From a virus (taxonomy: Duplodnaviria > Heunggongvirae > Uroviricota > Caudoviricetes), in IMG/VR virus record IMGVR_UViG_2541047850_000005, positions 3,554 to 67,553 of that record: a DNA stretch of 64,000 nt; one strand, 5' to 3'. The translations under genes and the position numbers were made by a program. Under the pieces are notes generated by a model that had not been told where the DNA came from, did not search any database, and saw only the letters and a list, made by a program, of their open reading frames with translations. This document shows positions 3,452-57,875 of this stretch, piece after piece (the stretch's first letter is position 1; each line of letters starts with the position of its first letter).

Positions 3452-3604
3452 CACAACTCCGTAAACAACTTGTTTTCTCAATGTCGTAAATAATACCAGT
3501 AAGAAAACGGCTACAAAGCATATTGATCAGGTGCATGAGCGATATGCAGGTTCTTCCCTGCGGCTATAGAGAAATTAAGCCAGCAATGCTGGCTTTGGTT
3601 GGGA

Positions 3605-46990: not shown

Positions 46991-48019
46991 TTAAAGAGAG
47001 TCCAGCTCTCTCAGTAGGTCATCCAGACCTTCATCTTCCGTCGCAGATGCGGCTGCTACAGATGTCGCTGCGACTGCTTCAGACTCTTTGACTGATACTG
47101 CAACGGCAGCGGAACTTGCTTCTGGTTTAAATTCAGTTTCAACGGCACGGAGGATTTCTTCATCAACCAGACTGGTTGGTTCAGAAGCTGGGGTGTGAGC
47201 GGTAGCTACAGCAGTCGCACCCTCCGTATGACCAGTGACAGAGCCAAATCCAGGCAGTGCCGCAGCCGATGTTTTCGCGGTTGAGGAAATTGCTGGTGCA
47301 GATGCTGCGGCAGTTGGTGCAGCGATGCCAATCAGACGACCCATAGTGCGAACTGTCGACAGAAGACGAGTTTCATCAGCCTGATTTGCGTATGCGATCA
47401 GATCATGCTGGGTGTTCCAGAATTTATCTTCGATATCGCCTTTGTAGACTTTACGCTTAGGCGAGACGTCATATTTGGTATCGCGACCAGAGCCAGTACG
47501 TTTAATCAGGAATGCGTAGCCTTCCTCTTTGCTCAGTGGATTACCGATATCATCAGCGATGTCTTCGGTGATTGCTTTGCAGATATCATCGAATACAGTA
47601 GACGGCAGCTCGATTAACTGGCATTTCTCAGCATCTGCGAAATCCTCACGAGCAGAAAGAATGCCGTTGACCAGGTAGCGAGGAGTGGCACGCATTTGAC
47701 CGATGCGTTCTTCCATTGCTTTGTTACCCTTGTGACGAGCGCGACCTTCCATCACCATTTCGCATAGCTGACAAGCGCGACCGTGAGTATGTTGCTCACA
47801 AATATAAGCGTTGGTTGCTTCTTTACCTTCCTCGTTCTGATACTTAACGTAGTGCATACCGAAAGTCTGGAAGAACTTACCGTTTGGGTCGTCTTTATTC
47901 GGGAAGATGCGGATATAGTTGACGCCGTCTTTTAAGCGAGTCAGATCAACGTTGTTACCACGTTTGGCGGCAATGTCTTCACGAGTTTTGTTAAGCAAAT
48001 CAAGTAATGTCTTAGACAT
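46991..48019 (-). CDS. putative single-stranded DNA-binding protein (gp32-like)
   Basis: Cys/His cluster CEQHTHGRACQLC, long Ala/Ser-rich linker and acidic C-terminal tail …EDEGLDDLLRELDSL typical of SSB interaction tails; inference. Confidence 0.45.
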   Translation of the reverse strand: MSKTLLDLLNKTREDIAAKRGNNVDLTRLKDGVNYIRIFPNKDDPNGKFFQTFGMHYVKYQNEEGKEATNAYICEQHTHGRACQLCEMVMEGRARHKGNKAMEERIGQMRATPRYLVNGILSAREDFADAEKCQLIELPSTVFDDICKAITEDIADDIGNPLSKEEGYAFLIKRTGSGRDTKYDVSPKRKVYKGDIEDKFWNTQHDLIAYANQADETRLLSTVRTMGRLIGIAAPTAAASAPAISSTAKTSAAALPGFGSVTGHTEGATAVATAHTPASEPTSLVDEEILRAVETEFKPEASSAAVAVSVKESEAVAATSVAAASATEDEGLDDLLRELDSL

Positions 48020-48136: not shown

Positions 48137-48568
48137 TCAACGGGGAGTAATAAAGCGTTCAGAGCCTAATCGCTCTAATTCAACGATGGCCATCTTTGAC
48201 GCCTGAACGATCATGTCTCGGCGATGCGAAAAGGCGGCGACAGCATGTTTGTATATGTCTGCGATGTGCCGTGCTTCATCCAACTTCTGCCGTTTAGACA
48301 GATACTGTGGGTTTGTTTTAACCTTAGCGTCCAGTACAGATTCGTTGAACTTAATGCCGTTCATACTCAAGTTCTTACGCTCTGTGTCGTATAGCTTTGC
48401 TTCAACAGCTTCAAGGTTAAGTTTTGCTTCTGCGACACTTCTTTCTGCATGGGCGAGTTTTGAGCCATATTCCATCAACAGGCGGGGTTGTCTACGCCAG
48501 ACTTCCTCCAGATTGTCTCGGTCAAACTCGAGATCAGACATTATTTTCTCGTAAATATCGGTGATCAT
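48137..48568 (-). CDS. hypothetical helical protein (possible recombination mediator)
   Basis: ORF track, 143 aa; sits between the SSB-like and DnaE genes. Confidence 0.35.
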   Translation of the reverse strand: MITDIYEKIMSDLEFDRDNLEEVWRRQPRLLMEYGSKLAHAERSVAEAKLNLEAVEAKLYDTERKNLSMNGIKFNESVLDAKVKTNPQYLSKRQKLDEARHIADIYKHAVAAFSHRRDMIVQASKMAIVELERLGSERFITPR

Positions 48569-48693: not shown

Positions 48694-51600
48694 TCACGAC
48701 TTAATAGTTTCTGCTACGTCGGCTAATATCGCTTCTAGTCGTTCTCCCTCTTCAGGTCTGAAGTAAAGAATGTTGGGGTTAAACCCGTAAAAGACAGTAA
48801 CGTCAAGGTCTGGAAGATACTCCTTCCTGCCGACCAAATCGGATGGCTTGTTTTTGTTGTTAAACAATGCCGTTGCCCGGCTGCCACACGTCAGCACATA
48901 GGTCGGACGCACCAGATTGATCTCTTCACGTATAAAGTCGGTGAACTGGCCGATCTCGTCTTTGGTGTAGTCTTTTTCTTTGTCTTTAACCTTCTTGCAA
49001 ACGCCTGTGACATAGAGATCGCCCATGCGTAAATCTCCAGCCGTCAATAGCTTGGCCTTAAAGTCGTCGTATCCGTTCTCCATAAAGTAACCTGTTCGAG
49101 CATCATTGCCGTTCGCATTGTCCAGAATGATCATGATTTTCGGCTTAATACCAATGCTGGGGCGGATTAGTTCATCACCTAAGCCCATTTCAGCCGCCAT
49201 CCGTGTCATGAGCACGTTAATCTCAGCCGAACGTTTGGGGTTCATCTCAAACGGACGTGAGGCTTTAACTGCGTCTATGACAAGATTTCCCATCAATTCC
49301 GCTTGGTCGCGGAGACGTTCTGGATCAGTTGCTGGCAGACTACCTGGCTCGATGGATGCAAACGCACCTACTTTTCGCAGTGATTCGCGCACTCGACTAT
49401 TACAGGCACGTTTCTCGACAGCTTCTTCGAATTGCGCCAGTGACTCGAATTTGCCGCCAACTTTTTCTCGCGCTCTCATGATGGCTTGGCAGCCATTCTC
49501 AGAACACCCCTTCACAGCAGAGAAGGGTGCATACAGAACCTGGCTGCCATCTTCAAGCGTGCGGATCTCGATTCGGTTAGATGACACGTTAACGTCTGGT
49601 GGCAATACGCGAATACCATAGGTCAGCGCATCTTTAACCAGCCCTTGGTGTTTATCTTCGCCAAGAATAGTGAGAGCAGCAGCGAAAAACTCTGCGGGAT
49701 AATGAGTTTTCAACCACATAGATTGATAACTGATTAAGGAGTAAGCAACAGAGTGTGATTTGTTGAACTGGTAGGCACCATTTTTTTCGAATGCGGTCCA
49801 GATCTCCTTCGCTTTCATCTCTGATAGGCCAGGATGTGACGCTGTAACGCGTACTGCGTTTATAGGTAGTTTTGCGCCGTGCTCAAGTGCCTCTTCGACA
49901 GTTTTCAGAGTTCCGTCTTCGCATTTAAAATGTTCCGCACGGTGAATGCGCTGTGTAGTGCCATCTTCCAGCTCAACGTCTATCCAGCCAGCTTGAGCCT
50001 GAACGATGAACTTCTCGCCCATGCTCTTCATTTTTTCCATGTTCTTCTTACCGATTGCGGAACGCACACCGTCAGCTTCAGCCATTGTGAAGCCGGCAAG
50101 CAATCGAGTCGCGTTCATCGTCTGTTCCTGATAGAGAATCACGCCATTTGTTTCCGCGGTAAGTTCATCAAGAACGGGGTGTAATGATTCCGGCGTCATA
50201 AAGCCTTTGGCGACAGAAACATAGTCATCCAACATGCCTGATTGAATTGGCCCCGGCCGGAAGAGCGCAGTTGTAGCGACGACCGTTTTAAAGCTCATTG
50301 GCTCAATTCCACCACCTAAATCTTTAAGCAGCTTGCGCATTGGGCCTGATTCAAGCTGGAAAACACCTTGAGTGTACCCAGCAGCAAAACCATCCAGTAC
50401 CTTGCGATCTTCAAGAGAAATGGCATCAAGATTGATATCCTCACCTGTGTTCTCTTTAATGTAGCGTTTTGCACTATCGAGCAAATCGAGAGTCGCCAGG
50501 CCAAGTACATCCAGCTTAATTAGGCCCATAGCCTCGCAGTAACGCTTGTCAAATGCGATACAACGCGCGTCACCACGGCGTTCAACCGGTGTACGTTCTG
50601 TCAAGGGAACACCTGCTACGATCATCCCTGCCGCATGTCTGCCAAAGCCACGCATAATGCTTTGTAACTTACAGGCTGCATTGAATGCATCAGGATATTT
50701 TGTCGCGTATTTGTCGAGACTTGCTAGTTGTTCGCGCAGCTCTTCCAATGGAAGGCTATCATCCTCGACGTTCTTCAGTTCTTTTGATACCGCCATATCC
50801 GCAGCATCGACACCGTAAATACGCGCAGTGTCACGCAGCGCAGAAGCAGCGCCCAGATAGGTGAAGTTCGGAATACCGGCAACGTAATCTTCGCCATAGC
50901 GTTCATTCAGATACTCGATCACCTCATGACGACGTGCCTGACTGAAGTCTAAATCAGCATCCGGCAAGTCGAGACGCTCAGGGTTGATGAAACGCTCAAA
51001 CAGAAGACCGTGACGGATTGGGTCGACGTTGGTTATGCCTATGCACCACGCCACCAGAGAACCGGCAGAGGAACCACGACCAGGCCCAACGGGAATGCCA
51101 GTTTCACGACTATGATTCATCAGATCGCGCACCATCAGGAAGTAACCACAGAATCCCAGGCGAGTCAGCGTGTCCATTTCGTACTTTAGCCGCTCAACAT
51201 AAACCCTGTTCTCAGAAGCAGGTGGTGTGTATCCAAACTCTTTTGTGGTAAGACGTTTACGCAGCCCTGCAACAGCCAGTTTCATCAGCGTTGCAGGTTC
51301 GTCGTCTGCCATCTTGGGCAGTGCTGGTGGCAATTCATGCCAGCGCCATGTGCAGGCATCGATAATGGTATCCTGCGTTGTTGAGGCCATTGCAGCTGTT
51401 ACCGGCACATCCATGCGAACGGAGAAGGCTTTAAGCGACTCAAGGAGATGGCGGCGACCATTGACGGCGTTATCTCGCTGGTGGGGGATACGCAGACGAT
51501 GCGGCTGGTCGATTTTTATGTTGTTCGTAACCATGTGCGCAATGTCTTTAATGTCTGCATCGTCGATCGATTCGTAATAAGCGGGATAGAACGCTACTGG

Positions 51601-52212
51601 CTCTATTTTCAGTGCGCTGGCTACTTTCATCGCTCGGACGTTAATCTGGTCGTAGAATGGGGTAGGGTGCGGATAAACCACGCTATAGAAGTTGTCTTTT
51701 CCACCCGCTGTAATCAGTGTGCTTATGATTTTTGCAAAATCGTTGCGTTGGAACACGCTACCGATGTCGGAAGTGAGCAGGATGATGTTGCCTTTGGCAT
51801 ATGTAGAAACCAACTGTTCGAGCGAGAGACGCGGTACAAAGTAGAACTGTTCTCGTGTGTTGGCCACCGTCATTAGTTCGCAGATGTCGCGATATCCTTG
51901 CTCATTTTTAATTAGAGCGGTAAACGAGTAGTTACGTCCCCGCTCTAATGATTCCATACATCTCATAGATTCTTTAGCAAGTTTAGCACGGTGCTCGTAT
52001 GTGGGATCATCAACAATGTTTAGTTTCACACCACAAATAACCGCCATGTCGTCACCAGCGGCACGTTGTAGTGGAATAACGCTCGCAATATTCATGCTAT
52101 CTGCTGAAATTACAGCGGTGTAGCCAGCTTCTCTGGCAATCTTCACCGCGTTTTCTGCTTTTAAAGCCGACTCCCCAAGTGAGAAGTCAGTTCGAACCAT
52201 CAGTGCCTTCAT
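48694..52212 (-). CDS. dnaE: DNA polymerase III alpha subunit (DnaE family)
   Basis: 1172 aa; GIPVGPGRGSSAGSLVAWCIGITNVDP…LLFERFINPER and AYQFNKSHSVAYSLISYQSMWLKTHYPAEFF match the DnaE polymerase core; N-terminal PHP-like domain. Confidence 0.9.
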   Translation of the reverse strand: MKALMVRTDFSLGESALKAENAVKIAREAGYTAVISADSMNIASVIPLQRAAGDDMAVICGVKLNIVDDPTYEHRAKLAKESMRCMESLERGRNYSFTALIKNEQGYRDICELMTVANTREQFYFVPRLSLEQLVSTYAKGNIILLTSDIGSVFQRNDFAKIISTLITAGGKDNFYSVVYPHPTPFYDQINVRAMKVASALKIEPVAFYPAYYESIDDADIKDIAHMVTNNIKIDQPHRLRIPHQRDNAVNGRRHLLESLKAFSVRMDVPVTAAMASTTQDTIIDACTWRWHELPPALPKMADDEPATLMKLAVAGLRKRLTTKEFGYTPPASENRVYVERLKYEMDTLTRLGFCGYFLMVRDLMNHSRETGIPVGPGRGSSAGSLVAWCIGITNVDPIRHGLLFERFINPERLDLPDADLDFSQARRHEVIEYLNERYGEDYVAGIPNFTYLGAASALRDTARIYGVDAADMAVSKELKNVEDDSLPLEELREQLASLDKYATKYPDAFNAACKLQSIMRGFGRHAAGMIVAGVPLTERTPVERRGDARCIAFDKRYCEAMGLIKLDVLGLATLDLLDSAKRYIKENTGEDINLDAISLEDRKVLDGFAAGYTQGVFQLESGPMRKLLKDLGGGIEPMSFKTVVATTALFRPGPIQSGMLDDYVSVAKGFMTPESLHPVLDELTAETNGVILYQEQTMNATRLLAGFTMAEADGVRSAIGKKNMEKMKSMGEKFIVQAQAGWIDVELEDGTTQRIHRAEHFKCEDGTLKTVEEALEHGAKLPINAVRVTASHPGLSEMKAKEIWTAFEKNGAYQFNKSHSVAYSLISYQSMWLKTHYPAEFFAAALTILGEDKHQGLVKDALTYGIRVLPPDVNVSSNRIEIRTLEDGSQVLYAPFSAVKGCSENGCQAIMRAREKVGGKFESLAQFEEAVEKRACNSRVRESLRKVGAFASIEPGSLPATDPERLRDQAELMGNLVIDAVKASRPFEMNPKRSAEINVLMTRMAAEMGLGDELIRPSIGIKPKIMIILDNANGNDARTGYFMENGYDDFKAKLLTAGDLRMGDLYVTGVCKKVKDKEKDYTKDEIGQFTDFIREEINLVRPTYVLTCGSRATALFNNKNKPSDLVGRKEYLPDLDVTVFYGFNPNILYFRPEEGERLEAILADVAETIKS

Positions 52213-52396
52213 GTGTTTTTACCTTTCTGGTTTTTTTGATTTTGTCATTTGGGAAGCCTACGAACTTCCCATGCATCGAAATCGCAACTTCTTTTGCTGA
52301 TTGGTGACAATAAGGCTTGTCTGGACACACCAGACAAGCCTTACCAGTTTCAGAAGCAGCGATAAGAGAGCCGAAACATCCTTTACGCACGATCAA
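52187..52396 (-). CDS. hypothetical small Cys-rich protein (69 aa)
   Basis: ORF track; CLVCPDKPYCH cluster; overlaps the dnaE start by 26 nt. Confidence 0.3.
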   Translation of the reverse strand: MIVRKGCFGSLIAASETGKACLVCPDKPYCHQSAKEVAISMHGKFVGFPNDKIKKTRKVKTHEGTDGSN

Positions 52397-53628
52397 CCAA
52401 ATATTTTTTGAACAACTTCACGAGCCGCTTGTGCAGAAGCTGAAGGGAGTTTGTTAATGAAAGAACGCTCAATACCTGTCACAAAATCGCCTCGCATCAT
52501 TCCAATCTTGGCCGACAACAAAAGCTCACGAGGCCCAATCGGTTGGCTGATATTGTGTTCTTCGTATCCATCGCGAACGATACCGGCAAACTTAACCATC
52601 TTTTCAGCGTATTCATCCACGATGCCGGCATTTATCAACATGTTGATCTCTGCCTCTTTGCTCATGTATTTCACATTCGAAACGATGCCAAAACGCGAAA
52701 AGTTAGCGGCGTTCTGGATGTTTGTACCCTGGTACAAGCCGGTTTCATCACCAGATCCGTTCGTGTTGCCAGTGCCAATGAAAGCAAACCGTTCATGCGG
52801 AGTAATGCGACGCCATTCTGGAGTCGCCTCTTTGATGACCAACGCTTCACCTTCCAGCACTGGCTGATACACGCCAAGAATCTGTGGAAACGCAAAGTCG
52901 TATTCATCCGCGAGGTAAACCCAGCCATGCTTCATTGCGAGCGCAAGCAAACCAGGCTCGAAATACGTAGAGCCATCACGCGCCAGAATTTGTCCCGTAA
53001 CATGAGCCTCTTCCATTGATGCTGTATGTTGGGCACGGATTAACGGACGATTGAGCAAAGCACATAGTTGTGTAGGCAATGAAGATTTGCCTGTTCCTGC
53101 ATGACCCCACAAATAGCCTGGTATGCCAAGTTCAAGCATCATGAAAATGTCTTTGATCAGTTCGAAGTCGCCATATACGTATCCCTTCTTCACTTCTGGA
53201 ACGAACTCTGGAAACGGCGTATTGACGTTGACGCTAACCATGAGCGGCGTCCCACGTTTTGTTCCGAGTTCTTTCACCGTTACATTTAGCATTTCGTGAG
53301 CTGCGACCAGATCTGTCTTGTACTCAACTGTGCCTGTATAGCCTGGGCTATTGGTCACGCCAGATGATTTGGCCATTTCGCTTTTTTGCTCGGCACGTTT
53401 AGCTTGAATTGCATCAAGTGCCTTTTTCGATAGCGTTGGCTCATCTGGAAACTGCGTTGTGTACATTTTCAGTACGGTGTCAGGATCGGCATCTTTTACT
53501 GACTCAGGAATGCCCTCGCAATTACCATTGGCTACATGGGACTTAAAATAGTGAAATGATTTTCCGCACCACTTGCAAACAAGGTAATCAGAAGGATTTT
53601 TTTCATTTTGCAGTGCAGTAGTAGTCAT
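52393..53628 (-). CDS. AAA+ ATPase, CobS/MoxR-like
   Basis: Walker A GHAGTGKSSL and Walker B-like VYLADEYD. Confidence 0.65.
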   Translation of the reverse strand: MTTTALQNEKNPSDYLVCKWCGKSFHYFKSHVANGNCEGIPESVKDADPDTVLKMYTTQFPDEPTLSKKALDAIQAKRAEQKSEMAKSSGVTNSPGYTGTVEYKTDLVAAHEMLNVTVKELGTKRGTPLMVSVNVNTPFPEFVPEVKKGYVYGDFELIKDIFMMLELGIPGYLWGHAGTGKSSLPTQLCALLNRPLIRAQHTASMEEAHVTGQILARDGSTYFEPGLLALAMKHGWVYLADEYDFAFPQILGVYQPVLEGEALVIKEATPEWRRITPHERFAFIGTGNTNGSGDETGLYQGTNIQNAANFSRFGIVSNVKYMSKEAEINMLINAGIVDEYAEKMVKFAGIVRDGYEEHNISQPIGPRELLLSAKIGMMRGDFVTGIERSFINKLPSASAQAAREVVQKIFG

Positions 53629-53723
53629 GCGTTTTTCCTTTGTTTTCTAATGAGCTTTCAACTTCTTATATAAATATACCATCAAATATCGTAAGTGATT
53701 ACTTATCATTAAGGCTATTCTAA

Positions 53724-55832
53724 TCACTTCAAAATGATACGAGATAGTTCAGTAACTACAGATGAACCAAGACTATCAACGCTCGTTACCAGGGCATGGT
53801 TTGCGTAAAATCTCTCCGGTGCGTCAGTCATGATGCCAATTGCCATCAAATCAATGTCAGTCTGCGTTTCAATTTGCTTCGCAACCGAACGCAAATGAGC
53901 GTCAAAACCTCTCCCAACAGCCAACGGCTCGCCATCATTCAGAACAAGCATGATCTTCCTGTCCTCCATGCGACCGGAAAATAACGATGCAAGGCTGGCT
54001 ATGCTTTCACCATCCACGTTATTAAGAAGTGGGAATGTGTAGCCTACGCACCCCATACGTGAGCGAACTTCGCGAGAATTTACCTTTTCATTCCAATTTT
54101 TGATGATAGGTAGCATTAAAGATTCAAAGCGAGAGAACTCATACTTGACAGCCTTAAGTTCTCCTGCCGCCATATGACTACCAAATGTAGTGAAGCCGGT
54201 GATAATGTTGGGAACATTTATTCGATCAAGGGCATCGGCGATGGTATATGCACTTGCAAGAGCCAATTGTATCGTTATACCACTCATTGAACCTGATAAA
54301 TCAATCACTTGTTGAACACAGGCGTTAACGGCTTTAGATTCTTCTTTTTTACGAAACACGCGATCATCATTCATTGCTAATCTGTAGATACTAGAACCAT
54401 GAATGCGCCCCCGACGCTGGCCCGGTATAAACTGAACTCTGTTTCTGCTTGCTATTGCTCGCTCCAGGTCTTTTGCCAGCGTCGACGAAACACCTGACGA
54501 AAGATGCTTTTCAATATATTTGTCGAAGAGCTGGTTGCCTTCAGGAACGATGCGATAGCGGCTGATTGGATATCCTCCTAAATCAATATCGGAGAATGTT
54601 TTAATAAGCCGTTTGATATGGGCTTCTGCCTGATCAATCGAGCCGATGAAGTCGTATGAGCGATTGTATGGCCTGTATTCACTTTTCGAGCTTTCTGTTA
54701 ACTCGCTTTTAATCGTTTCGGATAGAGCATCTTCTGTCATGCCTCCGACTTCATCTTCTATGCTATCCAGCTCCTCTAAAGCCTCTTCCAGACTCATTTT
54801 TGACGTAGTTGGAATATCTGAAGAGCCGTCTTCTGTCGTTTTTCTTTTTTCGTGGTCAGCGGTTAATGATTCTGACGCCGCGTTATCAGAAGCATCAGAA
54901 TCTGATACCTCTTTATCATTTTCTGTATCATCGAATATTGTTTCTGATGATTCAGAATTATCTGAATCATCACTGTCGTTATTATCATGTTTGTGCTTAC
55001 TATGTGATTCTGATTTGATAGATTTGTGATTATCTAACAATGAGGGTGTCTCATGATCTTCGTTGTCTTCATTGTTTTCTCCAGAGGCATCCGTCTGGTC
55101 AGCGTCTGAAGGATCGGAAGTTTTTCCCGGAGCTGACTCCTTACCTTTGCTTTCACTTTCAGTGTCTTTGAGGATCTTAGCTATGGTCGCAGCCACCTTT
55201 ACACAATCCTCGGTGCAAGACATGTTACGCACGGCCACATCGATACCATGTTCTTTTAATAATGAAATTGGTTTCTCAATGACAGGCCAATATTCATCCA
55301 TGAAATCTACGAACGGTGCTTGGCCATCCCAGGCTCTTACAACCGGACAGAGAAAGAAGTTTAGAAAAAGCGCGCGCTGATCTTTGCCACAATAAGCAAT
55401 AGCCTCTGAAGCCTTTGGTTTAAAGACTTTTTCGATTATAAGGCGCTGAGTTGCCATCAGATTACGTCTTGTTCCGTTAAAGACCTGACCCATTTTTCGC
55501 TCGATGAACACGTCTTCTAAGGCATTCCATAGCGACCAGGAAGGAACGCGTCCTTTTTCTTTCATTTTGTTGGACACACGAATATCGGTAAACAAAATGT
55601 GAGCAACCTCATGATCGAGAAATCCGCGCACAGCATTCATCAATGCCGGTGTTGCGTTATCCGGGATTGATGGGATGTTTACGAGAATTGGCTCTCCATC
55701 ATCATTATAGCGTACATAAGCGTCGTCCCCTCGTTCTGCAACAGGGATGTTTTTACCTGAAAGGAGAGCGACTACTCGTTTTACACTGTCACGGAAGTCC
55801 TGAACCTCTTTGATGGAACGTTTTTTAGACAT
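53724..55832 (-). CDS. CobT-like protein with acidic linker and C-terminal VWA domain
   Basis: Central Asp/Ser/Glu-rich low-complexity stretch; C-terminal MIDAS-like VIDLSGSMSG. Confidence 0.6.
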   Translation of the reverse strand: MSKKRSIKEVQDFRDSVKRVVALLSGKNIPVAERGDDAYVRYNDDGEPILVNIPSIPDNATPALMNAVRGFLDHEVAHILFTDIRVSNKMKEKGRVPSWSLWNALEDVFIERKMGQVFNGTRRNLMATQRLIIEKVFKPKASEAIAYCGKDQRALFLNFFLCPVVRAWDGQAPFVDFMDEYWPVIEKPISLLKEHGIDVAVRNMSCTEDCVKVAATIAKILKDTESESKGKESAPGKTSDPSDADQTDASGENNEDNEDHETPSLLDNHKSIKSESHSKHKHDNNDSDDSDNSESSETIFDDTENDKEVSDSDASDNAASESLTADHEKRKTTEDGSSDIPTTSKMSLEEALEELDSIEDEVGGMTEDALSETIKSELTESSKSEYRPYNRSYDFIGSIDQAEAHIKRLIKTFSDIDLGGYPISRYRIVPEGNQLFDKYIEKHLSSGVSSTLAKDLERAIASRNRVQFIPGQRRGRIHGSSIYRLAMNDDRVFRKKEESKAVNACVQQVIDLSGSMSGITIQLALASAYTIADALDRINVPNIITGFTTFGSHMAAGELKAVKYEFSRFESLMLPIIKNWNEKVNSREVRSRMGCVGYTFPLLNNVDGESIASLASLFSGRMEDRKIMLVLNDGEPLAVGRGFDAHLRSVAKQIETQTDIDLMAIGIMTDAPERFYANHALVTSVDSLGSSVVTELSRIILK

Positions 55833-55930: not shown

Positions 55931-56143
55931 TTAACAGGTTCTGACGGCTAAAGAGCCAGAGCCGGTATTGATAAGCGTGAAGCGTTTGTTATTAAGTAGG
56001 AATATAAAGGCTGTTGCGTCATGCATACCAACCTGAATCTGCTCATTTGGTAATTCGGTGAGAATGTCAGCTACACATTCATCAGCTAATTTTTCAACGT
56101 GTCCGATCTCAAGAGTGATTAGGCTGGAAATAGTTGTTTTCAT
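55931..56143 (-). CDS. hypothetical small protein (70 aa)
   Basis: ORF track; divergent from the HTH gene. Confidence 0.35.
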   Translation of the reverse strand: MKTTISSLITLEIGHVEKLADECVADILTELPNEQIQVGMHDATAFIFLLNNKRFTLINTGSGSLAVRTC

Positions 56144-56345
56144 TCAATCAATCCATTCTAACTTAAAATATGGTAGGGAGTACTATTAAATCTTATATCA
56201 TAATTGAACTTATCTATATCATATCTGAGTTAGTTTTGTTACATGTTATTAGTCGTTTTTCTCCATTAATGAATGCTGATTGGTTAATATTTGTGCCTGT
56301 AGAAAAAATGATTATATCTTTACAACCCTAACCTTTGATGTAATA

Positions 56346-56390: not shown

Positions 56391-56777
56391 ATGTCTGACA
56401 AAAACATTGAATTTATAGAAAGTCGCTATGCTGCTTTTATCGCAGGGCTGATTGAATCCTCACCTATGAGTCAGGCCCAAATAGCCAGACTTATTGGTTA
56501 TAAAAATGCCAACAACCTTTCTTTAATTAAAAGTGGTAAAATTCCTTTGCCTATCGATAAGGTTCGTCCGCTGGCGTTGGCGCTGGGTATTGAGCCAAGT
56601 CGTCTTATGATGATGGTGCTGGAAGAACGCCAACCTGAACTCGCAGCATTTTTATACAAAGAAGGCACCGCTCCTCTTAACGAGGACGAAAAACAGGTTC
56701 TTGCTGCATATAACGAGCGATTCGGTAAAGAGAAAGGCGCATCACAAAAGGTTGTTGAGGCCATAAAGTCTCTATGA
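56391..56777 (+). CDS. XRE-family helix-turn-helix transcriptional regulator
   Basis: …SQAQIARLIGYKNANNLSLIKSGK… HTH signature; 128 aa; convergent with the recombinase gene. Confidence 0.65.
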   Translation: MSDKNIEFIESRYAAFIAGLIESSPMSQAQIARLIGYKNANNLSLIKSGKIPLPIDKVRPLALALGIEPSRLMMMVLEERQPELAAFLYKEGTAPLNEDEKQVLAAYNERFGKEKGASQKVVEAIKSL

Positions 56778-57875
56778 AAAATTTAGACGAATAAGCTCTG
56801 TTGATAGACGATCTCCCTTGAATTTGTGGTCAATTTCGTCTAAATCCGGTTGCTCTACGATTGATGCGATGTACGTTGAGAAACTTTCTAAGGCGTCTCG
56901 CATCTCGTCCATATAATCGTGCCGGTCGTAGACCCGATCTATCCCCTCAAGACTGTGGTTCATGATTTTGCGTGATACCTCCTGGCTTATGCCTAATGCT
57001 GGGAAGTAACTACGCGCAGTACGACGCAAATCTCGGGGTGTAAATGGCGCAAGCTCCATCAGTTCTGGTCGTTCCAGAATACGACGTAATGCCTGGGCTA
57101 TTGCCACTTTAGACATAGGAAGGTCTTTCCCGATTTTTTTATTCGAAGGCACGAGCCACTGGCTGTCTTTACCGTATTCGAACAACTCTTCAATGCATGT
57201 GCGCATTAATGTGCTTAAAGGCAGCGAATGCTCACGTGCTGACTTGTTTCTCTTGCCTTGATTCCAAACTCCACGCTTAAGATTGAACTCACTTTTTTTA
57301 GCCCTCAGTACTTCGTCAGGTCGTCTTGCTGATACAAGACACAGCCTGGCCGCCCATTTTGTACCAGCGCACACATTGAAGTAGTCCCATATATTCCAGA
57401 ACACCCATACCTCTGCGTCGGTCAGCTTCCGCTCGCGAGGTGTGGGCTTTGCGCCACCGGCAACTTTGTTTAGTGACATATCGTTTAACGGTGACACGTC
57501 TATCATCCCCTGGAAGGCGCACCAGCTAAGGAACTGCTTCATCAGAGAGAAAACGCGGCGGCCCATAACAATTTTGCCATCCAGTATTAGTGGGTTGACC
57601 AGTTGGTTCACCATGAACCTATTAATGTCACTTACTTTTACATCGGCAATGTGCGGCAAAACATGTATCAAAATACAATGAACAGCGATCTCTGGCCGAC
57701 GTCTGGTTATCAGCAGAGATAAGCGAGTGAATAACATGAATGCGTCCGAGAATTTCATATCATTGCTAACCTGCGAGATCATAACGGCCTGCATTTGAGA
57801 TGCTCTTTCGAGATACTCAATCGCCTCTTTTGAGGTGTTCTCAGCAGCGCGTGCTCTGTCAAAGCTATTTTTCAT
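56772..57875 (-). CDS. tyrosine-type site-specific recombinase/integrase
   Basis: 367 aa; candidate catalytic Arg (ARRPDEV), RDLRRTARSYF and HSLEGIDRVYDRHDY fit the R…H-x-x-R…Y pattern. Confidence 0.75.
   Translation of the reverse strand: MKNSFDRARAAENTSKEAIEYLERASQMQAVMISQVSNDMKFSDAFMLFTRLSLLITRRRPEIAVHCILIHVLPHIADVKVSDINRFMVNQLVNPLILDGKIVMGRRVFSLMKQFLSWCAFQGMIDVSPLNDMSLNKVAGGAKPTPRERKLTDAEVWVFWNIWDYFNVCAGTKWAARLCLVSARRPDEVLRAKKSEFNLKRGVWNQGKRNKSAREHSLPLSTLMRTCIEELFEYGKDSQWLVPSNKKIGKDLPMSKVAIAQALRRILERPELMELAPFTPRDLRRTARSYFPALGISQEVSRKIMNHSLEGIDRVYDRHDYMDEMRDALESFSTYIASIVEQPDLDEIDHKFKGDRLSTELIRLNFS

Follow-up and report, generated by a model that had tools for sequence, protein, structure and literature searches.

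CobS/CobT-like ATPase and VWA proteins encoded beside dnaE in an Escherichia coli phage-plasmid: homologues of the cobaltochelatase motor with a zincin-like signature

Introduction

Do viral genes that resemble cobS and cobT encode subunits of a cobaltochelatase, or do they encode a machine that serves the virus in another way? This question, open since phage cobS was first noticed, is raised by a pair of adjacent genes in a stretch of 64,000 nucleotides (nt) from the Caudoviricetes record IMGVR_UViG_2541047850_000005 (positions 3,554 to 67,553), which was analyzed as a whole and is called the window here. The pair encodes a CobS-like AAA+ ATPase of the MoxR class and a CobT-like protein with a von Willebrand factor A (VWA) domain, lies close to a gene for the alpha subunit of DNA polymerase III (dnaE) and is carried by an element from Escherichia coli that belongs to the SSU5 supergroup of phage-plasmids (PMC7969092). 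An initial annotation, made from the letters of the window, had recognized a CobS/CobT architecture in a place without cobalamin context and had proposed a replication-linked role.

Nearly every marine myo-cyanophage carries homologues, at roughly one copy per genome, and others occur in phages of Vibrio cholerae, in roseophages, rhizobiophages and actinophages, and in viruses of haloarchaea, as well as in hundreds of enterobacterial phage-plasmids, some of them from Yersinia, Salmonella or Klebsiella. A viral cobST cluster has already been described (PMC8651126), and in T4-like (group 2.2) jumbo phages Iyer et al. (2021; PMC7824862) found a MoxR ATPase together with a vWA protein possessing an N-terminal metallopeptidase, which they read as a co-chaperone. 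Both the pair and its interpretation as a metallopeptidase-VWA system are thus already published, and the feature is known as such, while papers of 2023 and 2024 (one of them, on myo-cyanophages, is PMC9983427) still call the function of phage cobS unknown.

Results

Domain composition of the ATPase and of its VWA partner

The two proteins are encoded by adjacent minus-strand open reading frames (ORFs; Table 1), which lie where the initial annotation had placed them; the order it had given, with the ATPase first, has to be reversed, as the VWA gene comes first in transcription. The ATPase of 411 amino acids (aa) matches the Pfam family AAA_5 (2.1e-15, 57 bits against a cut-off of 22) and phrog_249 (9.5e-107). 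Its AAA+ core extends over aa 141-411, where CobS from the Protein Data Bank (PDB; 9ujv_A) is aligned at E=3.8e-26, and weaker PDB matches were obtained with CbbQ (1.5e-6) and NorQ (1e-3). The Walker A sequence GHAGTGKSSL, from which the protein had originally been recognized as an ATPase, is located at aa 175-184 (nt 53077-53106) and the Walker B sequence VYLADEYD at aa 237-244. Among 40 homologues, residues G175, G178 and K181 of Walker A, D241 and E242 of Walker B, and N288, N290, R312, R352 and R367 are invariant. With its AAA_5 profile, its intact Walker A and B motifs and its sensor and arginine residues, the protein has, as judged from its sequence, the characteristics of a MoxR-class AAA+ ATPase. 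A clamp loader of the gamma/tau/RFC type, considered because the ATPase gene lies near dnaE, was rejected as belonging to the wrong AAA+ class: the DnaX and RFC families in Pfam and NCBIfam gave no match to the ATPase, the only match being to AAA_5 (dynein/MoxR type). T4-like cyanophages possess the pair in addition to their gp44/62 clamp loader genes.

The N-terminal extension in front of the AAA+ core, 140 aa that cellular CobS does not have, matches no Pfam family. It contains a zinc-finger-like motif C18-x2-C21-x4-H26-x4-H31 (CKWCGKSFHYFKSH; aa 18-31, nt 53536-53577, minus strand), which had been overlooked in the initial annotation. Among 47 viral homologues, C18 and H26 are each retained in 43 and H31 in 38, whereas position 21 is occupied by C in 30 and by D in 11. 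Most relatives within the DnaE-phage group have conserved this CCHH motif, and cellular CobS lacks it. Other lineages have longer and different extensions, so that the total length of the ATPase ranges from 411 to 617 aa. As far as can be judged from these sequences, the extension fits a lineage-specific adaptor or substrate-recognition domain.

In the case of the 702-aa partner, Pfam matches were obtained for the CobT N-domain (9e-27) and for the VWA region, CobT_C (5e-81), and the protein matches phrog_1576 at 5.5e-298; the VWA region also matches CobT chains in the PDB (9uka_G, 7.5e-13; 21vt_A, 6e-15). The ATPase and VWA domain matches are far beyond chance, and the AAA_5, CobT, CobT_C and PDB results agree with the AAA+/VWA assignment and with the CobS/CobT architecture that had been proposed. 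The acidic linker and the C-terminal MIDAS (metal ion-dependent adhesion site) described at the outset were both recovered. The MIDAS sequence DLSGS is found at aa 511-515 (nt 54288-54302) and is complemented by T548 and D633; as D511, S513, S515, T548 and D633 are invariant in 58 sequences, the VWA domain carries the full set of MIDAS residues (D-x-S-x-S, Thr, Asp). The region from aa 226 to 400 consists of 29% D+E and 26% S+T. An AlphaFold2 (AF2) model of the full-length protein (predicted local distance difference test, pLDDT, 81; predicted template modelling score, pTM, 0.74) is confident for aa 1-229 and 340-702 and predicts disorder for aa 230-339, with pLDDT <50 across aa 230-240, 242-248 and 252-339. 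Relative to distant relatives, the linker diverges fastest, its rate of nonsynonymous substitution (dN) being 0.64-0.89 as compared to 0.22-0.55 in the two domains. The ratio of nonsynonymous to synonymous rates (dN/dS, omega) was of little use, as synonymous sites are saturated in the comparison with distant relatives and too few changes exist in the comparison with phage Cyrano (omega 0.06-0.37).

A zincin-like signature in the N-domain of the VWA protein

The N-domain of the CobT-like protein contains the sequence HEVAH (aa 74-78, nt 55599-55613), another motif that had escaped the initial annotation, followed by NALEDVFIERKM (aa 103-114, nt 55491-55526) with the residues N103-x2-E106-D107-x3-E111. 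A search among 1.84 billion cluster representatives yielded 4953 relatives, 521 of them at E <=1e-30; a protein search with the full CobT-like protein as query was dominated by near-identical clusters of the SSU5 type. HExxH is retained in 143 of the 146 full-length relatives examined (50%-cluster representatives, best matches). In an alignment of 58 sequences, E75, E106 and E111 are invariant and H74, H78, N103 and D107 are conserved in at least 90%. Cyanophage S-PM2 (HEVGH) and Vibrio phage ICP2 (HECYH) have retained the motif, as have a Rhizobium phage, Roseobacter phage CRP-810, the oyster Zobellviridae phage T5S1 and Gordonia phage Woes.

In contrast, none of 58 full-length cellular CobT proteins from alphaproteobacterial genomes contains HExxH. 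These proteins were recovered by a genome scan, a query with the VWA part of CobT from the PDB having given only C-terminal fragments. At the position of HExxH, cellular CobT reads S-M-A-L-R in a profile-profile alignment (hhalign, E=1.7e-4), and the homology between the viral and the cellular N-domain is independently backed by a Pfam CobT match at 1.6e-21. The motif therefore sets the viral family apart from true CobT, and at the level of sequence it suggests proteolysis rather than pure chaperoning.

The AF2 model of the N-domain (pLDDT 93.3, pTM 0.88) shows a three-stranded sheet, a helix with HExxH and a helix with glutamates; HEVAH is placed on helix 62-81 and E106 and E111 on helix 99-117. 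In BFVD this N-domain fold is found again in VWA proteins from siphoviruses and podoviruses as well as from actinophages and viruses of haloarchaea, and the fold comparisons, with the PDB and BFVD taken together, support a zincin reading weakly at most. Taken at sequence level, the combination of an HExxH helix and a downstream acidic residue amounts to a gluzincin-like signature. To judge from motif and predicted fold, the VWA partner is probably a zinc peptidase too, a reading that motif conservation supports well but does not prove. The old "peptidase" label of the cyanophage homologue, which was called a mistake (PMC8651126), may be apt after all.

Proposed mechanism and gene neighbourhood

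The reading that we prefer, and to which we would give an even chance, is that the pair forms an ATP-driven MoxR/VWA remodeller, the VWA partner of which has a zincin-like N-domain, and that it acts early in lytic growth on a client in replication and recombination of the phage or the host. CobS is found together with CobT in PDB entries such as 9uka, and by homology the pair studied here is expected to form a complex as well. By analogy, the ATPase would form a ring to which the VWA protein is docked in the manner of CobS and CobT; an acidic residue of the client protein would be gripped by the MIDAS of the VWA domain, and ATP hydrolysis would remodel or pull the client. The N-domain with its HExxH...E zinc-site signature would then cleave the client or at least hold a metal. 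As to client and timing, we infer that a replication-recombination protein of the phage or the host would most likely be acted on at the onset of lytic replication.

The neighbourhood of the pair is conserved. In 43 of 44 diverse viral contigs the CobS-like gene adjoins the CobT-like gene, the exception being cut by the contig end; T precedes S in 39 loci and S precedes T in 4. In all 35 T-then-S loci with enough downstream sequence, dnaE is found <=3 kb downstream, and a gene for a helicase, a primase or a ligase lies upstream in 26 of 32 loci. The gene order is ligase, CobT-like, CobS, one gene and DnaE in Nickievirus, and CobT, CobS, sigma factor, further genes, DnaE, single-stranded DNA-binding protein (SSB), exonuclease and RecA in the Rhizobium phage. 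With other replisomes, ICP2 has CobT, CobS and two genes before primase, helicase and PolA, S-PM2 has gp47, gp46, "peptidase", CobS, gp45 and gp44, and the Cobavirinae podovirus T5S1 has CobS, CobT, DNA polymerase and primase-helicase. Thus in every lineage sampled, with replisomes of the DnaE, PolA or T4 type, the pair lies in the replication module or in a non-structural region, and in no lineage inspected was it seen in a structural module. The replication-linked role that had been proposed initially gains circumstantial support from this neighbourhood with three types of polymerase, by synteny only and not through a functional link to DnaE.

Cyanophage CobS and "peptidase", ORF41/42 of ICP2 and the pairs of haloarchaeal tailed viruses, Zobellviridae Cobavirinae and SSU5/pHCM2-type phage-plasmids belong to the same family as the pair in the window, which matches phrog_249 and phrog_1576 at E <=1e-106. 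They share the pairing and the location outside structural modules, and nothing essential differs. Distinctive of the locus in the window are the T-then-S order and the cysteine-rich micro-ORF and dnaE directly downstream, and the N-extensions of the ATPases differ by lineage.

Several points weigh against the preferred reading. The basis for assigning a peptidase is a short motif; no peptidase family in Pfam gave a match, with DUF2201_N appearing in 1 of 58 members at E=0.18, and the only peptidase-labelled match was a weak one to phrog_459 ("peptidase"), which is itself a CobT-like viral family. The N-domain alone gave no phmmer match and nothing significant by Foldseek when compared with the PDB. 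HExxH is lost in the Pseudomonas (Nickievirus) phage phiK7B1, which reads SEISK, as well as in 3 of the 146 representatives, and to judge from these sequences catalysis is therefore dispensable in some lineages. As to the client, the annotated neighbours in Gordonia Woes and Roseobacter CRP-810 do not belong to the replisome (endonuclease V, hypothetical proteins), and the patterns by which the 44 contigs were collected came from one clade, so that the contigs may represent a single vertically inherited block. Because phage early regions consist mostly of replication genes anyway, the neighbourhood is weak evidence for a replication client. Searches of the literature found no functional experiment on any viral member.

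Rather than a replisome protein, the same machine, made early, might act on clients of the host that have no part in replication, such as nucleoid or defence proteins or regulators, and would then serve in host takeover or counter-defence; it would sit in the replication module only because this is the early region. The position of the genes just downstream of a divergent repressor-like gene suggests very early expression, the variation of the ATPase N-extension between lineages is as expected of host-specific adaptor or substrate domains, and in Gordonia and Roseobacter phages the pair is found among uncharacterized non-structural genes. Counter-defence genes are usually patchy and fast-evolving, however, whereas the core proteins of the pair show strong conservation among phages whose hosts differ widely, and PADLOC found no similarity to defence systems. 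In myo-cyanophages, cobS behaves like a core gene present in single copy (PMC9983427). On balance we regard a host-takeover protease as unlikely.

A chaperone or protease for the folding, assembly or proteolytic maturation of structural proteins was proposed by Iyer et al. (2021; PMC7824862) for the T4-like jumbo phages, and the tail development of Acidianus two-tailed virus offers a precedent for a MoxR-vWA system (cited in PMC7824862 and PMC7159879). Their pair (ASV44728/ASV44729) and ours, likened by description and not sequence by sequence, permit the same domain reading, but the context in the window points to the replication or early module and not to virion assembly. The pair lies outside the structural module in every lineage inspected, in the window it shares strand and close spacing with dnaE, and in Cyrano the structural genes (0.1-26.5 kb of the record) are on the strand opposite to the pair (43-46.6 kb), all of which makes a function in virion assembly decidedly unlikely.

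Relationship to cobaltochelatase and to cobalamin metabolism

Cobaltochelatase CobS/CobT of alphaproteobacteria (PDB 9ujv, 9uka, 21vt) shares with the viral pair an AAA_5 MoxR-class ATPase and a partner composed of CobT N-domain, acidic linker and VWA-MIDAS domain, with significant similarity over the AAA+ core and the VWA domain. When compared with the equivalog models, however, neither viral protein reached the curated cut-off: 87.2 bits were obtained for CobS (TIGR01650) against a cut-off of 558.55, and 60.8 bits for CobT (TIGR01651) against 759.05. In Cyrano, a relative with 94% identity, the annotation of about 106 of the 108 kb was inspected and contains neither CobN nor another B12 gene, as is the case for the inspected 25 kb of PhiR41_1, so that the impression of a pair without cobalamin context was borne out. 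ThyX, DHFR and a class I NrdAB are among the annotated products of Cyrano; a B12-dependent ribonucleotide reductase (RNR) as the reason for the pair was rejected, as this relative encodes class I NrdAB.

On the side of the host, Salmonella uses the anaerobic CbiK route. To make B12 in E. coli MG1655, cobN, cobS and cobT were supplied within a heterologous pathway of about 30 genes (PMC6249242), and we take from this work, and not from a direct search of E. coli genomes for CobN, that E. coli has neither CobN nor a corrin substrate. Unlike the aerobic cobaltochelatase, the pair is thus found with neither CobN nor a corrin pathway in phage or host. Because the scores are far below those of the equivalogs, Cyrano has no CobN or B12 gene and E. 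coli has no pathway, cobalt insertion by the pair in this element is very unlikely. By their sequences, the two proteins are to be considered homologues, not functional equivalents, of the CobS/CobT motor.

A related function would be that of a chaperone which, like CobST, BchID, NorQD and CoxDE, inserts a metal: without proteolysis, the metal held by HExxH would be delivered to a metalloenzyme of phage or host, candidates being the PHP domain of DnaE, Mre11-like nucleases and ribonucleotide reductase. Many characterized MoxR/VWA pairs act in metal-cofactor insertion (PMC7159879), the closest characterized relatives of the pair are chelatase motors, and metal-dependent neighbours exist (DnaE with its PHP domain here, gp46/gp47 in cyanophages). 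Nevertheless, different lineages have different metalloenzymes as neighbours, an HExxH with a glutamate-bearing helix after it is the standard catalytic zincin signature and not a transfer site, and a CobN-like client is not encoded according to the annotation of Cyrano, so metal insertion seems highly improbable to us. That the viral proteins are true auxiliary metabolic gene products which hijack host CobN to boost cobalamin synthesis, as suggested by Liu et al. (2021; PMC8651126), is supported by their homology to CobS/CobT and could hold in CobN-bearing hosts (cyanobacteria, haloarchaea, rhizobia), but for this element it has hardly any likelihood, given a host without CobN or corrin substrate (PMC6249242), a close phage relative annotated without B12 gene and with class I RNR (Cyrano), the low equivalog scores, and an HExxH that is kept in viral proteins and lost in every cellular CobT examined.

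Public labels for the pair include "CobT / AAA ATPase" and "porphyrin biosynthesis". In Cyrano (locus L002), CYRAN_47 and CYRAN_48 are annotated as "dimethylbenzimidazole phosphoribosyltransferase" and "cobalamin synthetase", which is a name collision with the unrelated CobT and CobS enzymes of the Salmonella nomenclature. The same confusion of CobS/CobT names is present in virome papers (e.g. PMC11288001, PMC9983427).

Organization of the locus in the window

The features of the locus are listed in Table 1. Downstream of the repressor-like gene, no other large minus-strand gene precedes the CobT-like and CobS-like genes; dnaE and the UvsY-like, gp32-like SSB, exonuclease and RecA-like genes come after them on that strand. 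Escherichia phage PhiR41_1, which has a circular genome of 107,998 bp and E. coli K-12 MG1655 as its host, matches a 7.1-kb stretch of this region at 100% identity; the stretch shows 94-97% identity to phages Cyrano and CMS-2020a and 80% to Salmonella phage SSU5, and is matched by 670 plasmids (Escherichia, Klebsiella, Enterobacter, Yersinia, Salmonella and others). Many enterobacterial plasmids are about 98% identical to the pair region. These phage and plasmid matches, together with the literature, agree with the earlier statement that such pairs occur with unknown function in phages and phage-plasmids.

Table 1. Features of the CobT-like/CobS-like locus and its surroundings, with positions in the window
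Feature	Position (nt)	Strand	Evidence or remark
Integrase gene	57875..56772	-	just upstream of the minus-strand run
Helix-turn-helix (HTH) repressor-like gene	56391..56777	+	just upstream of the minus-strand run
orf70	56143..55931	-	ORF upstream of the CobT-like gene
CobT-like VWA protein, 702 aa	55832..53724	-	Pfam CobT + CobT_C, phrog_1576
N-domain of the VWA protein, aa 1-229, putative zincin site	55832..55146	-	
Disordered acidic Ser/Asp/Glu-rich linker of the VWA protein, aa 230-339	55145..54816	-	pLDDT, composition
C-terminal helical region and VWA domain with complete MIDAS	54815..53727	-	CobT_C, PDB 21vt_A
CobS-like MoxR-class AAA+ ATPase, 411 aa	53628..52393	-	AAA_5, phrog_249
N-terminal extension of the ATPase, aa 1-140	53628..53209	-	outside the alignment with cellular CobS
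Cysteine-rich ORF, 69 aa from TTG (probably 67 aa from GTG at codon 3)	52396..52187	-	phrog_6337
dnaE (polymerase III alpha, 1172 aa)	52212..48694	-	Pfam DNA_pol3_alpha, finger, HHH_6 and PHP domains
UvsY-like gene	48568..48137	-	
gp32-like SSB gene	48019..46991	-	

The pair had been described as placed right upstream of dnaE. It does lie on the same strand but does not adjoin dnaE directly, as the cysteine-rich 69-aa ORF is located between them and overlaps both the stop codon of the ATPase gene and the start codon of dnaE. This ORF matches phrog_6337 at 6e-45 over aa 3-69 and is kept at the same position in the SSU5-like loci L177-L180, while it is without annotation in PhiR41_1. Its conservation does not reach beyond SSU5-like relatives, and the slot between the CobS-like gene and dnaE is taken in more distant DnaE phages by a gene for a sigma-70 region-2 protein. 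A relationship of the cysteine-rich ORF to the sigma-70-like gene in the same slot was considered and rejected, as no sequence similarity was found.

The overlaps and the close spacing suggest that the CobT-like gene, the CobS-like gene, the cysteine-rich ORF and dnaE are co-transcribed, and transcription would start in the divergent region beside the repressor-like gene. A terminator-like hairpin at 48687-48663, after dnaE, is the only strong one on the minus strand in a scan based on consensus only, and consensus scans for local transcription signals were otherwise unremarkable. The divergent intergenic region that separates orf70 from the HTH repressor-like gene contains a direct repeat of 14 nt (TATATCATAATTGA / TATATCATATCTGA; 56194-56228) with a spacing of 21 nt; the two copies are candidate operator sites for the transcription unit with the pair and dnaE.

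In DnaE, the C-terminal part of about 250 aa (48694-49450; aa 920-1171) matches phrog_4335 and phrog_13175, both PHROGs of unknown function, which suggests a phage-specific module replacing the usual tau- and clamp-binding region. The dnaE gene of the window is uninterrupted. In loci L178, L179, L180, L190 and L198 it is split into two ORFs about 50-700 nt apart (in L178, 13766-16135 and 16843-18024), which suggests a frameshift, an error of assembly or the presence of an intervening element, be it an intein, an intron or a homing endonuclease.

Beside the integrase gene lies a cargo block of low G+C content (0.355; 58408-63102 and 63469-63879), which encodes an AraC/GadW-like regulator, a fimbrial usher of 826 aa, a chaperone and a fimbrial subunit; behind these genes lies an orfA fragment of an IS3-family transposase. 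The block is also found in PhiR41_1 and is not at the same place in Cyrano. Pfeifer et al. (2021) noted that the SSU5 supergroup has cargo of the PapC/PapD type. No tRNA genes were found in the window.

Discussion

A comparison with characterized systems places the pair among machines in which an ATPase ring acts together with a MIDAS adaptor on a client, as described for BchI/BchD, RavA/ViaA, NorQ/NorD, CbbQ/CbbO and CoxD/CoxE (PMC7159879). Their clients are metabolic enzymes encoded nearby, whereas none is encoded at the viral locus. The signature in the N-domain recalls a different group of machines: FtsH, and SPRTN/Wss1 with p97/Cdc48, couple AAA+ unfolding to an HExxH zinc protease, and SPRTN/Wss1 act at replication forks. 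These are mechanistic analogues only, as no sequence relationship was detected, and in the viral pair the two activities would reside on separate chains, with targeting through the VWA/MIDAS domain. We know of no other MoxR/VWA pair in which the partner has been described with an HExxH N-domain.

If this analogy is carried further, the pair could represent a new class of two-component AAA+ protease, in which a MoxR ring feeds clients captured by the MIDAS site into a zincin on the partner chain and which serves the phage replisome. Such a protease might clear protein roadblocks or protein-DNA adducts or process a replisome or recombination factor, and CobST would then be a derivative without the protease site. 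We put forward this extension as a speculation that is quite unlikely to hold in full, its assumptions on roles and on the descent of CobST included.

As the 7.1-kb region is identical to that of a phage recorded as growing on E. coli K-12 MG1655, the pair is available in a convenient genetic system. Virome studies routinely count the pair among vitamin-B12 "auxiliary metabolic genes" and often confuse it with cobalamin synthase and dimethylbenzimidazole phosphoribosyltransferase. If the viral proteins are not chelatase subunits, as the evidence from this E. coli element indicates, the inferences on B12 metabolism drawn from them would be wrong, and a conserved core function of many phages would be left unexplained.

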